Shown: positions 2,825 to 15,201 of the stretch, piece after piece
How the letters are laid out: every line of letters begins with the position of its first letter
Numbering within the stretch: the first letter of the stretch is position 1
NCBI GenBank assembly: GCA_964592775.1
Contig: CAZQFX010000041.1
Span: forward strand, 1 to 19,080
Origin: an uncultured Actinomycetota bacterium
GTDB lineage: Bacteria; Actinomycetota; Geothermincolia; Geothermincolales; RBG-13-55-18
DNA length: 19,080 bases
Reading direction: 5' to 3'
The notes under the pieces: model-generated
Told to the model about the DNA's origin: nothing
Seen by the model: the letters and a program-made list of their open reading frames with translations, nothing else
Database searches by the model: none
Translations under genes and position numbers: made by a program

Positions 2825-2858
2825 TGGGGTCAGTCATCCATGTCGCGCGGCCGCGATA
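2825..2858 (+). repeat. Copy 1 of a 34-nt direct repeat containing a GUCGCG-CGGC-CGCGAY hairpin
   Basis: TGGGGTCAGTCATCCATGTCGCGCGGCCGCGATA here versus TGGGGCCAGTCACCCATGTCGCGCGGCCGCGACA at 15168-15201: 31/34 identical, all three differences T/C transitions. It lies 13 nt upstream of the exonuclease ATG and overlaps a TATTAAT -10-like box (2857-2863). Confidence 0.85.
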
Positions 2859-2870
2859 TTAATTGCCCCC

Positions 2871-3272
2871 ATGGACGAGAAGAGAGGCGGCATAGTGAGC
2901 AGTGTCTTCTGCGCTGTGGACGTGGAAACCTCGGGGCTGTACATGGGCAGCAGGCTGGTCGGGCTGGGCGCCGTGAGGTTCTCCCCGGCGGGGCCCATCG
3001 ACGATTACCACACCCTCGCCGATCCCATGGAGCTCATCCAACCGGCGGCCACGGACATCCACGGCATCACCGACGACATGGTATGCGGCTGTCCGCGCCC
3101 GGCCGAGGCGGTTAGCAGCTTCGGCGACTACCTGGGTGGTGCCGTCTTCGTCGCCCAAAACGCCCGCTTCGACGTGCGCGTGATCGGCCTGGAGCTCGCC
3201 CGCGCCGGCCCGGAGCCTGCTCCTGTCGTGGGCGCCTTGCATACGATCTTGGTGTTGGACCATGAGGCGTAA
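2871..3272 (+). CDS. DEDD-family (DnaQ/epsilon-like) 3'-5' exonuclease, apparently C-terminally truncated
   Basis: Lies in ORF 2766-3272. Start set at ATG 2871, so the ExoI motif (FCAVDVETSGL) sits about 15 aa from the N-terminus as usual. There is no SD, but TATTAAT 7-8 nt upstream would suit a leaderless mRNA. ExoII (FVAQNARFDVRVI) is present. The ORF stops about 30 aa later without an ExoIII H-x4-D motif (133 aa in total). Confidence 0.75.
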   Translation: MDEKRGGIVSSVFCAVDVETSGLYMGSRLVGLGAVRFSPAGPIDDYHTLADPMELIQPAATDIHGITDDMVCGCPRPAEAVSSFGDYLGGAVFVAQNARFDVRVIGLELARAGPEPAPVVGALHTILVLDHEA

Positions 3273-3286
3273 GGGACGGCGTTCAG

Positions 3287-3320
3287 AGAGGGGGATACGG
3301 GAAACCGCATCCCCCTCTCG
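3287..3320. terminator. Long perfect hairpin between convergent genes (probable bidirectional terminator without a U-tract)
   Basis: GAGAGGGGGAT (3287-3297) pairs perfectly with ATCCCCCTCTC (3310-3320), an 11-bp stem. The 12-nt loop ACGGGAAACCGC can add CGG/CCG pairs around a GAAA tetraloop. It lies between the exonuclease stop (3272) and the hydrolase stop (3337). Confidence 0.5.
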
Positions 3321-3336
3321 CCTGACCTCACTCCAC

Positions 3337-13303: not shown

Positions 13304-13350
13304 CCCATCCCACCTGAGCAACTGCTAATGGAAGTAAGCGTGTCCGCCGA

Positions 13351-13380
13351 TTAATTCTATGATTATATTATATATAGGGG
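13351..13380 (+). promoter_or_regulatory. AT-rich promoter region upstream of pilB
   Basis: TTAATTCTATGATTATATTATATATAGGGG is the only AT-rich tract between cysK and pilB. It contains several overlapping TATATT/TATATA -10 candidates 45-60 nt upstream of GTG 13424. The exact hexamers are not resolved. Confidence 0.35.
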
Positions 13381-13423
13381 TATCGTTTCTCCCCGCACAC
13401 GTGAGGACAAGGAGGCGGTAGGA

Positions 13424-15100
13424 GTGCCCTCGGCGACGGACAGGTTGTCGCAGCTCCTGCTCAAGAACAACGTCATAAACGAAAAGCAGCTCGCGGCGGC
13501 CCTGGAACGCCAGAAGGAGTCCGGTTCCTCGCTGGGCAGGGTCCTCCTCGAGATGGGCGTGGTCAAGGAGAACCAGCTCGCCGAGGTCATCGCCCGCGAG
13601 CTGGGCCTGGAGTACGTCGACCTTCTCGAATACAAGATCAACATCCAGGCCACCACGTCGATCGAGGAGTCGACGGCCCAGCGCTACACCTGCATCCCCA
13701 TCGATTTCGAGGACGGTCGCATGGTCGTGGCCATGGCCGATCCCACCAACATCTACGCCCTGGATGACATCCGGCTGAGCACGGGCTACGAGGTAAGGCC
13801 GGTGGTCAGCGCGCGTGAAGACATCATCAGCGCCATCCAGCGCTACTACCACCTGGATACCGACGTGGTCGAGGAGGCGTTGGAGGGAAAGGAGCTGGAT
13901 GAGGTCGAGGGGATCTCCGGCGTGGTGGACGACACGCCCCTGGTGCGCTTCACCACCACCATGATCGCCGAAGCCATCAACCGCGGGGCCAGCGACATCC
14001 ACGTGGATCCGCGCGAGAACGAGGTGCTCATCCGCTACCGCATCGATGGCGTATGCCAGGAGATCAAGCGGGTGCCCAAGAACATCCACCAGGGCATCGT
14101 CTCCCGCATCAAGATCATTTCCGATTTGAACATCGCGGAGCGGCGCGTTCCCCAGGACGGCCATTTCGGGATGGTCCAGAACGGCAAGGCCATCGATTTC
14201 CGCGTGGCCGTACTTCCCACCGTATACGGGGAGAAGGTGGTCATGCGTATCCTGGACAAGTCGAGCATCCTGCTGAGATTGGAGGACCTTGGCTTCCTCC
14301 CTGAATCCCTGGAGAAGTACCGCAAGGCCTTCATGCTCCCCCACGGCGCACTGCTGGTCACGGGCCCCACGGGTAGCGGGAAATCGACCTCCCTTTACGC
14401 CACGCTCAACGTGCTCAACACCGAGGAGAAGAACATCACCACCGTCGAGGACCCCGTGGAGTACCGCCTCGCCGGCATCAACCAGGTGCAGGTCAATCCC
14501 AAGGCGGGATTGCACTTCGCCAACGCCCTGCGCAACATCCTGCGCACGTCCCCGGATATCCTGATGGTGGGCGAGATCCGCGACCGCGAGACGGCGAAGA
14601 CCGCCATCGAGGCAGCCCTCACCGGCCACCTGGTCCTTTCCACCCTGCACACCAACGACGCGCCCAGCGCGCTTCCCAGGCTCATCGAGATGGGAGTGGA
14701 ATCCTTCCTCGTGGCCTCCGCCCTAAACTGCGTGCTGGCGCAGAGGCTGGTGAGGAAGCTGTGCCAGAACTGCAAGGTGCCCTACGAACCCGATCCGGAG
14801 GTGCTGAGGACACTCAACTTCCCCCGCAATGGAGAGGGGGAGGATATGATCCTCTACAAGGCGAGCGAGAACGGTTGCGCGAAATGCAGCGGCACCGGGT
14901 ACAAGGGGCGCGTCGGTCTCTACGAGGTCATGCCCATGAGCGAGGATATCCAGAGGCTGACGGTGAAGGAGGCCTCCGCAACCATCATCATGAACCAGGC
15001 CATCGAAGACGGGCTGCTGACCATGCGCGACGACGGCTTCGTCAAGGTGAAGATGGGGCTTACCTCCATCGAAGAGGTGATGAGGGTCGTCGCGGTGTGA
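13424..15100 (+). CDS. pilB: Type II/IV secretion-system ATPase (PilB/GspE family) with an N-terminal MshEN-type domain
   Basis: 558-aa ORF. GTG start with AAGGAGG and an 8-nt spacer. N-terminal T2SSE_N/MshEN repeats (RLSQLLLKNNVINEKQLAAALERQ; SLGRVLLEMGVVKENQLAEVIARELG), Walker A GPTGSGKST, Asp box and Walker B (ILMVGEIRD), His box (GHLVLSTLHTND), and a tetra-Cys zinc site (CQNC...CAKC). Confidence 0.93.
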   Translation: MPSATDRLSQLLLKNNVINEKQLAAALERQKESGSSLGRVLLEMGVVKENQLAEVIARELGLEYVDLLEYKINIQATTSIEESTAQRYTCIPIDFEDGRMVVAMADPTNIYALDDIRLSTGYEVRPVVSAREDIISAIQRYYHLDTDVVEEALEGKELDEVEGISGVVDDTPLVRFTTTMIAEAINRGASDIHVDPRENEVLIRYRIDGVCQEIKRVPKNIHQGIVSRIKIISDLNIAERRVPQDGHFGMVQNGKAIDFRVAVLPTVYGEKVVMRILDKSSILLRLEDLGFLPESLEKYRKAFMLPHGALLVTGPTGSGKSTSLYATLNVLNTEEKNITTVEDPVEYRLAGINQVQVNPKAGLHFANALRNILRTSPDILMVGEIRDRETAKTAIEAALTGHLVLSTLHTNDAPSALPRLIEMGVESFLVASALNCVLAQRLVRKLCQNCKVPYEPDPEVLRTLNFPRNGEGEDMILYKASENGCAKCSGTGYKGRVGLYEVMPMSEDIQRLTVKEASATIIMNQAIEDGLLTMRDDGFVKVKMGLTSIEEVMRVVAV

Positions 15101-15167
15101 TCTCGATCGCGGGTGCCTATAAGGCCGGTCCTTTGTCTTCCCATCCTTTGCCTTAAGTAATGGGAAA

Positions 15168-15201
15168 TGGGGCCAGTCACCCATGTCGCGCGGCCGCGAC
15201 A
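15168..15201 (+). repeat. Copy 2 of the 34-nt hairpin-containing direct repeat
   Basis: 31/34 identity to 2825-2858. Here the hairpin GTCGCG-CGGC-CGCGAC is perfect. It lies 67 nt downstream of the pilB stop in a 294-nt gene-free convergent region. Patchy similarity to the exonuclease 5' end continues for about 60 nt (GGCGGCA...ATAGT...GAGC.GTGT). Confidence 0.85.

Follow-up and report, generated by a model that had tools for sequence, protein, structure and literature searches.

Do the two copies of a 34-nt direct repeat in a mercury-methylation (hgcAB) locus mark the borders of an acquired island, or are they traces of something else? The locus lies on contig CAZQFX010000041.1 (assembly GCA_964592775.1) of an uncultured Actinomycetota bacterium, the whole 19,080 nt of which we call the window. 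An earlier note on this DNA proposed that the repeats may be att-like boundaries of an acquired or rearranged 12.3-kb island or, alternatively, a shared operator or RNA motif. We conclude that each 34-mer is very probably the left insertion junction of an insertion sequence (IS) of the bridge-RNA-guided IS110 family, and that neither copy appears to be a border of the hgcAB block. The repeats seem to mark recombination insofar as they are footprints of site-specific recombination by a mobile element; they do not appear to be att-like island borders.

Identity of the 34-mer

The repeat itself (TGGGGYCAGTCAYCCATGTCGCGCGGCCGCGAYA) is as first described. Its copies, both on the + strand, occupy positions 2825-2858 (copy 1) and 15168-15201 (copy 2) and agree at 31 of 34 positions, all three mismatches being T/C transitions. 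The pair is far above chance expectation, as none of 200 dinucleotide-preserving shuffles gave a match, and it is the sole long two-copy direct repeat of such quality in the window (repeat family D17). Both copies contain the hairpin GTCGCG-CGGC-CGCGAY, closed by a G-C pair in copy 2 (15185/15200) and by a G-U pair in copy 1 (2842/2857). Copy 1 lies at the start of an RNase_T-type exonuclease open reading frame (ORF), ending 12 nt upstream of its ATG at 2871. The window encodes no integrase, and tblastn likewise found no transposase.

A degenerate pattern scan of species-representative genomes placed the motif on three contigs of one Actinomycetota metagenome-assembled genome (MAG), CAYPZH01 (loci L002-L004), and a scan of metagenomes added two further loci (L006 and L007). 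A match in Gemmataceae (L005) is probably due to chance: it lacks the GGGG flank and the downstream sequence of the element, and by our own estimate about 0.5 such matches are expected.

Locus L007 carries a complete element. Its junction GGGGTCAG/TCACCCATGTCGCGCGGCCGCGACACCACCGAGGATGAAAATAGG... (a slash marks the element boundary) is followed by 246 nt of non-coding DNA and then by a 406-aa ORF matching DEDD_Tnp_IS110 (E = 3e-39) and Transposase_20 (E = 1e-20), and its right end (RE) is reached 23 nt past the stop codon, at ...TTATATTTTCAGGGCAG/GTCTTG. L007 and L008 have the same junction, GGGGTCAG/TCACCCATGTCGCGCGGCCGCGACACCACC, and 245-246 nt of non-coding left end (LE); the RE of these two full-length relatives reads ...TTTTCAGGGCAG, also written ...TATTTTCAGGGCAG/. 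Further full-length copies, collected through protein homologues of the L007 transposase and their contigs, span 91 per cent down to ~50 per cent amino-acid identity to that transposase. The closest of them (L008, L009, L011, L012, and L023) all begin right after GGGGTCAG, and the same 8-mer stands directly 5' of the LE in L003, L004, L006, and L007. Full-length elements with the RE on the contig end in ...TTTTC(A/G)G(G/A)(G/A)CAG; the L023 contig runs out inside the RE tail, at ...TTTTCAGAG.

The window 34-mers are made up in the same way, GGGGYCAG (left target half and core) being followed by the first 24-26 nt of an IS110-family LE, which opens with TCAYCC and a GUCGCG/CGCGAC hairpin. Junctions of left target (LT) with LE and of RE with right target (RT) like those of copy 2 are found in L003, L006-L009, L011, and L012. 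A recombinase with DEDD and Transposase_20 domains is encoded in L007, L008-L012, and L023, and tblastn finds none in the window. Terminal inverted repeats are absent, a core is present at both junctions, and the LE starts right after target and core, as in IS110 elements. Judged from the full-length junctions and the restored palindromes described below, the element appears to insert after GGGGTCAG with a core of CAG (or AG) repeated at both junctions. With their long LE, short RE, and bridge-RNA-like LE, the elements appear to be of the IS110 subgroup type and to form an uncharacterised clade with miniature derivatives.

Apart from the two copies, the window yielded nothing further that is related to IS110; a 17-nt match (9879-9895, E = 0.04) is coding and lacks a partner arm. 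An IS200/IS605 end, a palindrome-associated transposable element, and an integron attC site were also considered; none had matching features, and all were superseded once L007 showed an IS110 transposase.

Guide-like strings and structure of the left end

In a bridge RNA, the left target guide (LTG) is the top strand of the left target plus core, and the left donor guide (LDG) is the top strand of the left donor (the RE end) plus core (Durrant et al. 2024, PMC11208160). In six IS lineages, strings within the LE match the element's own left target flank and its own RE end, co-varying with both, at homologous LE positions ~107-118 and ~170-181. The guide assignments, which rest on sequence matching, are as follows:

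L007, L008: LTG-like GGGTCAG, flank GGGGTCAG; LDG-like (C)AGGGCAG, RE end CAGGGCAG
L009, L011, L012: LTG-like GGGTCAG, flank GGGGTCAG; LDG-like (C)GGAACAG, RE end CGGAACAG
L023: LTG-like GGGTCAG, flank GGGGTCAG; LDG-like CAGAGCAG, RE end CAGAG...
P0027 family: LTG-like ATGAGTAG, flank ..GAGTAG; LDG-like CAGGGTAG, RE end CAGGGTAG
L027: LTG-like CCGTTAG, flank CCCGTTAG; LDG-like TCATGGGAG, RE end TCATGGGAG
Alicyclobacillus dauci plasmid NZ_CP104065.1: LTG-like ATTAG, flank CTATTAG; LDG-like CAGGATAG, RE end CAGGATAG

The full-length relatives therefore appear to carry a bridge RNA, that is, a structured non-coding end with loops matching target and donor; the window copies lack the loops. A putative match for the right donor guide (GGG...CUG against CAG-TCA-CCC) is discontinuous and was read by eye, and is weaker evidence.

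An alignment of seven LE sequences yields a 5' hairpin and a long stem enclosing two guide-string sub-domains, with 57 pairs in all, 16 of them with compensatory changes. The hairpin of the 34-mer is this 5' LE hairpin. Across 12 distinct sequences, 97 per cent of its cells are paired, exchanges of the types U-A/C-G/G-C and C-G/A-U occur, and its covariation score was matched by no shuffle.

Anatomy of the two copies

Copy 2 can be followed from its left target to its right flank:

15169-15176, +: left target half-site and core GGGGCCAG, which is also the outer 5' arm of a host palindrome
15177-15270, +: whole 94-bp miniature IS110 derivative, with neither transposase nor guide loops (from LE head and RE tail alignments)
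15177-15182, +: right donor (RD) TCACCC
15185-15200, +: LE hairpin
15209-15217, +: conserved box GTATGAAAA
15256-15270, +: RE tail GTATTTTCAGAACAG, ending in core CAG
15271-15347, +: rest of the interrupted host palindrome, comprising the right flank GCCTTGG..., the loop, and the 3' arm ...CTTGAGGC, then CTGACCCC at 15340-15347

Core CAG occurs at 15174-15176 and again at 15268-15270, and GGGGCCAG pairs with CTGACCCC except for one C/A mismatch. The LE head (15177-~15217) and the RE tail align with the miniatures L002, L003, L004, and L006 and with the joined LE and RE of L008. Copy 2 keeps both IS ends, lacks the transposase, and sits in the parent's target, and in these respects resembles a MITE (miniature inverted-repeat transposable element). 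Having neither transposase nor guide loops, it cannot move on its own. Together with its palindrome, it appears to be a simple, local intergenic insertion between the convergent T2SSE-ATPase and STAS genes, because the adjacency of these genes is ancestral; their spacer is 294 nt in the window and 30 nt in the related locus L030. The internal segment 15228-15250 is 74 per cent complementary to the palindrome interior at 15301-15323.

A 1.1-kb Logan contig (L001, SRR11582139) is 100 per cent identical to window positions 15175-16281 and ends 2 nt outside the LE start. This break point is as expected at a multi-copy sequence and suggests that the LE head is multi-copy in that sample; IS110 junction sequences of this kind break short-read assemblies.

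Copy 1 is shorter:

2826-2833, +: left target half-site and core GGGGTCAG, equal to the LTG-like GGGTCAG within full-length LEs
2834-2857, +: truncated LE stub, LE nt 1-24 (match to L003 and L007/L008); homology to the IS family stops at 2856-2858
2834-2839, +: right-donor hexamer TCATCC, then ATG
2842-2857, +: hairpin GTCGCG-CGGC-CGCGAT

Over 32 nt it has 100 per cent identity to the miniature of L003; identity to the LE of L007/L008 is 97 per cent, and the BLAST homology of copy 1 to the element family ends at 2856. From ~2858 on, the DNA belongs to the exonuclease fragment itself (its -10/ATG region and coding sequence) and is shared with an unrelated metagenome contig, L033. Because this exonuclease DNA continues from ~2858, copy 1 appears to be what a deletion with its end point inside the LE left behind, a stub fused to the exonuclease fragment's own promoter region, possibly with the breakpoint at a CGCGA microhomology. 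Keeping the LE head only, it is a remnant and not a MITE.

These results also bear on the proposal that copy 2 is a decayed duplicate of the exonuclease 5' end. The patchy similarity on which that proposal relied is no more than chance would give: aligned locally, 2859-2960 and 15202-15300 share at best a 7-mer with a score of 14, which 52 per cent of shuffles and 55 per cent of random genomic windows also reached. In addition, the exonuclease N-terminus (MD..GGI..VFCAVDVETSGL) is kept in L033, with ~80 per cent DNA identity from the -10/ATG region, and L033 has no IS motif. The N-terminus is therefore native and copy 2 is not derived from the exonuclease gene; the converse, an exonuclease N-terminus derived from the element, is rejected on the same two observations.

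The DEDDh exonuclease is a truncated 133-aa fragment (2871-3272), covering positions 3-120 of the 164 in the RNase_T profile. The ~175 nt from its start recur at ~80 per cent DNA identity in L033 (804-1079), where the gene has another, unrelated context and is likewise cut off at nearly the same point, and the gene head may itself be a travelling fragment.

Miniature elements and their target palindromes

In L002-L004 and L006, similarity to copy 2 extends beyond the 34-mer (...GCGACACCACCGAGKATGAAAAYG...) and resumes at a second box, YTTTCAGGNCAG, giving units of 65-94 nt. Since L007 places the transposase between these parts, the short units are LE heads and RE tails with the middle deleted. 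Specifically, the L006 miniature is the LE of L008 (nt 1-53) joined to its RE (last ~19 nt), and three miniatures of 65-66 bp with an identical internal junction are found on the three contigs of MAG CAYPZH01; in the window's own genome, the known copies are the two within the window. Three independent deletion architectures are represented (94 bp in the window, 71 bp in L006, and 65-66 bp in CAYPZH01), all of which keep the LE up to the GGATGAAAA box, hairpin included, as does a solo LE in L014. That all of them retain these parts suggests a benefit to the element from the hairpin and the GGATGAAAA box, and hints that the two serve some purpose (insulation, recombinase contact, or a promoter) over and above the ~22-bp minimal donor of IS621. 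The finding adds an uncultured Actinomycetota IS110 clade with recurring LE-head and RE-tail miniatures of 65-94 bp, of which our literature search on IS110 elements found no account.

When the element is removed in silico, near-perfect palindromes of the form GGGGTCAG-arm-loop-arm'-CTGACCCC are restored (z = -10.7 in L003 and -11.7 in L012). The rebuilt empty site of the window (15166-15176 joined to 15271-15350) folds into a less perfect hairpin closed by GGGGCCAGGCC/GGCCTGACCCC (z = -2.9). The right flank of L010-L012 is the rest of a long palindrome closing with CTGACCCC, and the same holds for the miniatures L003, L006, and copy 2. An uninterrupted palindrome with the same ends is present in CAYPZH01 (L004, 7450-7544; z = -8), and in L006 an 'empty' paralogue, AAAAAAGGGGTCAG/GTCTTGAATCTTG, lies 70 nt upstream of the filled site. 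Judged from these sites, the element often seems to insert in the 5' arm of palindromes resembling repetitive extragenic palindromic (REP) sequences, a known habit of IS110 members (PMC12288879; preprint 10.64898/2026.03.19.712850).

Long palindromes or short repeats with GGGGTCAG and CTGACCCC termini and differing arms occur in several metagenomic organisms (L004, 7450-7544; L011, 1585-1700; L012, 1570-1640). They may be a REP-like family that serves as IS target.

In the low-GC IS110 lineage P0027, full-length copies stand directly after RE-like tails (...CTATTTTCAGAGTAG/) or in tandem (left flanks of L014, L015, L018, and L019; L017), and downstream in L014 a solo LE head follows one RE. 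These arrays look like expanded loci produced by repeated insertion beside existing ends.

Synteny of the locus and the hgcCAB indel

The genes and other features around the two copies are:

15-1811, +: carboxylesterase
2069-2740, -: LUD-domain protein
~2776-8625 (+/-50 nt), unstranded: window-specific segment of 5.9 kb with LE stub, exonuclease fragment, 742-aa ORF, TetR, and hgcB/hgcA/hgcC (blastn against L030/L031/L032)
2871-3272, +: truncated DEDDh exonuclease (RNase_T profile)
3337-5565, -: 742-aa ORF without Pfam or NCBIfam match
5616-5700, -: c-di-GMP-II riboswitch candidate upstream of the 742-aa ORF (52.3 bits against an Rfam gathering score of 53.5; E = 3.5e-9)
5823-6434, +: TetR
6540-6809, -: hgcB (NCBIfam equivalog, 99.3 bits, at cut-off)
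6796-7785, -: hgcA (NCBIfam equivalog, 389 bits; NVWCAAGK motif)
7892-8188, -: hgcC (NCBIfam equivalog, 117 bits)
8651-9724, +: MtaA/CmuA-type URO-D protein
9861-~10870, -: metallophosphoesterase, 336 aa
10988-12100, -: 370-aa ORF without Pfam match; GC content at third codon positions (GC3) 0.87
12353-13303, +: PALP enzyme
13424-15100, +: T2SSE/MshEN ATPase
15395-15736, -: STAS protein

Contigs of Actinomycetota MAGs with LUD homologues (85-87 per cent identity) have the gene order COesterase, LUD, URO-D/MtaA, metallophosphoesterase, PALP, T2SSE, STAS (L030 and L032). In blastn comparisons, the window is collinear with related MAGs at 2068-2756, 8626-9715, 9907-10868, 12366-13305, 13410-15093, and 15411-16316; homology to L030/L031/L032 stops at 2753-2756 (LUD) and restarts at 8626-8630 (URO-D/MtaA). 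LUD and the MtaA-like gene are 100-520 nt apart in L030/L031 and L032. LUD and STAS are not neighbours in L030 or L032, where the genes from URO-D/MtaA to T2SSE lie between them. Because the stretch 8626-15100 is collinear and already next to STAS in L030 and L032, it is ancestral, and the 12.3-kb block therefore does not qualify as an island. Nor do the two repeats enclose a single unit, as had been supposed: the breakpoints are at ~2776 and ~8625, not at 15168. What survives of the island idea is that an hgcAB-bearing segment does vary between relatives, namely ~2776-8625.

This relocation of the indel, with LUD and the MtaA/CmuA-family methyltransferase as ancestral flanks, bears on how hgcAB movement is inferred. 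The 5.9-kb difference may be a gain in the window lineage or a loss in its relatives. Copy 1 lies ~50 nt inside the left edge of the segment and is the sole 34-mer copy near an indel edge. A second window-specific piece, ~10871-12360, holds the 370-aa ORF.

Four further observations concern the neighbouring features. The hgcC-hgcA-hgcB operon (6540-8262, -) has a strong sigma70-like promoter at 8262-8234 and adjoins the MtaA/CmuA-family methyltransferase gene. A terminator-like hairpin at 5628-5603 overlaps the 3' end of the c-di-GMP-II candidate match. The mechanically listed 729-aa ORF at 9861-12050 is a chimera of the 370-aa ORF region and the metallophosphoesterase in another frame. Finally, the last ORFs of the window contain tandem repeats (18491-19015) of period 69 nt (23 aa), in at least six copies with 67-78 per cent identity; in L030, too, the homologous region aligns repeatedly.

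Proposed mechanism

An autonomous copy elsewhere in the genome would supply recombinase and bridge RNA in trans. This assumed element would have an LE opening with TCAYCCATGTCGCG, an RE ending in ...CAGRRCAG, an LTG of ~GGGTCAG, and an LDG of ~AGAACAG. The recombinase-bridge RNA complex would recognise left donor, core, and RD on the circularised miniature, whose RE-LE junction would in the case of copy 2 read ...CAGAACAG/TCACCC..., and LT, core, and RT at GGGGTCAG sites, needing just ~11 bp on either side of the core. Copy 2, an LE head joined to an RE tail, would have entered the 5' arm of a REP-like palindrome in an intergenic region, following GGGGCCAG. Copy 1 would be a separate insertion, from which a deletion removed all beyond the LE hairpin. 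Such mobilisation of miniatures in trans is plausible by analogy, because IS621 makes do with a 22-bp donor if its bridge RNA is supplied in trans (PMC11208160) and because a MITE-like IS110 satellite, MITEPpu9, is already on record (PMC12288879). The 5' stem-loop of IS621 has been reported to be a terminator-like brake (preprint 10.64898/2026.03.19.712850).

Alternative explanations

Several observations weigh against reading the 34-mers as IS110 junctions. The 19-kb window has no autonomous copy, neither transposase nor bridge RNA, so that a cognate mobiliser with an LDG of ~AGAACAG has to be assumed. We found no allelic pair of empty and filled sites for either window copy, and the mobility of the miniatures is inferred from the paralogous sites in L006 and L004. 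The window palindrome is imperfect, its LT GGGGCCAG has one mismatch to the LTG-like GGGTCAG, and the miniature sites L002 and L004 have no obvious palindrome partner within the available DNA. About 30-38 nt of extra internal sequence in the window miniature have no clear origin and are partly complementary to the palindrome interior. Finally, the hairpin of the 34-mer may be the 5' stem-loop of a bridge RNA, or it may be a DNA-level or terminator element.

The alternative that fares best, although we consider it improbable, is a composite or expanded IS110 unit, in which a trans-acting bridge recombinase could excise and move the 12.4 kb from the LE stub (2834) to the RE tail (15270), or in which an IS110-type half-match event might have delivered the 5.9-kb hgcCAB segment. 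The two ends are in the same orientation, both junctions retain the ~11 bp around the core needed by IS621, copy 1 is within ~50 nt of the left edge of a real indel, and split LE/RE substrates and cargo-bearing IS110 loci of up to tens of kb have been reported (preprints 10.64898/2026.03.19.712850 and 10.64898/2026.08.14.744561). However, by synteny the right two-thirds of the 12.4 kb never moved, neither an RE-like motif nor a core-flanked junction occurs at ~8600, composition gives no signal, and the stub breaks off 24-26 nt into the LE instead of at the core, which points to an ordinary deletion. We give similarly little credence to the idea that the stub at 2826-2857 is a scar left when IS110-type recombination, bridge-RNA-guided or 'half-match', brought in or rearranged the 5.9-kb hgcC-hgcA-hgcB segment found between LUD and the MtaA-like gene; if true, there would be a concrete vehicle by which mercury-methylation genes came to their patchy horizontal distribution. 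In a weaker version, the 65-94-bp miniatures may be the smallest natural bridge-recombinase substrates, actively mobilised in trans.

It is quite unlikely that the 34-mer is an independent palindromic repeat of REP/REPIN or MITE type which IS110 elements merely target. The host palindromes (GGGGTCAG...CTGACCCC) do resemble a REP-like family, and IS110 members are known to target REPs (PMC12288879; preprint 10.64898/2026.03.19.712850). Yet the palindrome accounts for just the leading 8 nt of the 34-mer; empty palindromes lack the remaining 26 nt, which are collinear with full-length LEs. Moreover, the RE tail reappears past the transposase stop codon in L007, L008, and L009-12, and the miniature is therefore LE plus RE and not an IS target. 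A related scenario, an IS110 element jumping into a pre-existing small repeat, was rejected: in all full-length copies the RE tail comes after the transposase stop, and L006 is the LE and RE of L008 joined.

Less probable still is a host cis-regulatory element, either an operator or a 5'-UTR (untranslated region) RNA motif common to two transcription units. In its favour, the hairpin is conserved with compensatory changes, copy 1 is immediately 5' of a start codon, and the spacing from hairpin to ATG is alike in several copies (12-14 nt). But copy 2 and the copies in L003 and L004 face a convergent gene or the contig end, the short ORFs after the ATG vary in length and sequence, neither copy has an Rfam match (E <= 1), the motif is the first 26 nt of transposase-bearing elements, and its conservation tracks IS phylogeny, not host genes. 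The 'shared operator/RNA motif' reading was partly right: the hairpin is conserved and co-varies, but as a component of the IS left end, not of a host regulon. Two specific candidates of this kind were rejected. A small non-coding RNA or riboswitch with a closing stem UGGGGYCAG...CUGACCCCA has no Rfam match, the whole region folds as RNA no better than shuffled sequence does (z = -0.25), and the 'closing stem' is the host palindrome; a small ORF from the conserved ATGAAAA would give peptides of 12-44 aa, which are not conserved.

Least probable of all are att-like recombination borders of a 12.3-kb acquired or rearranged hgcAB island, for which the direct orientation of the two copies, the absence of the hgcCAB-bearing segment from related MAGs, and the position of copy 1 ~50 nt within the left edge of that segment would speak, but against which stand the collinearity of 8626-15100 (URO-D/MtaA, metallophosphoesterase, PALP, T2SSE) with L030/L032, where STAS is already adjacent, the lack of any IS- or repeat-like feature at the true right edge (~8600), the lack of an integrase or tRNA in the window, the completeness of copy 2, whose own right end is 94 nt downstream, and a composition that is equal in insert and flanks. 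No compositional break between insert and flanks is seen (GC 0.639 vs 0.649; GC3 0.85-0.90 throughout; tetranucleotide correlations with the flanks 0.90-0.93). Nor are there repeats at both breakpoints with an integrase or tRNA at one end. With the IS110 junction reading, an apparent 'island border' is re-annotated as a mobile-element footprint; in a sequence-only reading, such junctions can be mistaken for att sites or riboswitches.

Comparison with known systems

Tyrosine- or serine-integrase att repeats are likewise short direct repeats in the same orientation some kb apart. In contrast to them, the repeats described here come with no integrase, lie off the synteny breakpoints, and are each part of a separate IS junction.

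The closest parallel to the full-length relatives is IS621 and the IS110 subgroup (PMC11208160; Hiraizumi et al. 2024, PMC11208158). Shared with it are the DEDD and Transposase_20 recombinase, a structured non-coding LE of ~245 nt, a short RE, the lack of terminal inverted repeats, a short core at both junctions, co-varying LE strings equal to left target plus core and RE end plus core, and a 5' stem-loop at the LE start. The present clade differs in that its transposases have 39-66 per cent amino-acid identity to the named IS110 transposases encountered in this analysis, its core is of CAG/TAG type (...AG) and not CT, its guides are assigned by sequence matching, and the window has a transposase-less miniature and a stub alone. 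Lengths of 0.8 to ~100 kb are on record for IS110 loci (preprint 10.64898/2026.08.14.744561).

ISPpu10 and other REP-targeting IS110 elements (preprint 10.64898/2026.03.19.712850) also insert next to or inside DNA hairpins at intergenic 'safe' sites and split the hairpin into flanks. Unlike the present clade, ISPpu10 is reported to lack the 5' stem-loop of the bridge RNA, and two of the present miniature sites lack a clear palindrome. The interrupted host palindromes share GGGGTCAG/CTGACCCC ends, and the 34-mer itself is mostly LE, not palindrome.

For the miniatures, the counterpart is MITEPpu9, the ssr9 module of ISPpu9 (IS110 family, REP-targeting; PMC12288879), a non-autonomous unit with ends like those of its parent IS, found without transposase at several loci inside palindromic extragenic repeats and presumed to be mobilised in trans. 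Whereas MITEPpu9 carries a functional small RNA gene, ssr9, as an add-on module, the present miniatures are internal deletions of 65-94 bp that keep the LE head (hairpin and GGATGAAAA box) and ~15-20 nt of the RE. By analogy, the principle of these miniatures appears to be the same as that of the MITE-like IS110 derivatives already known.

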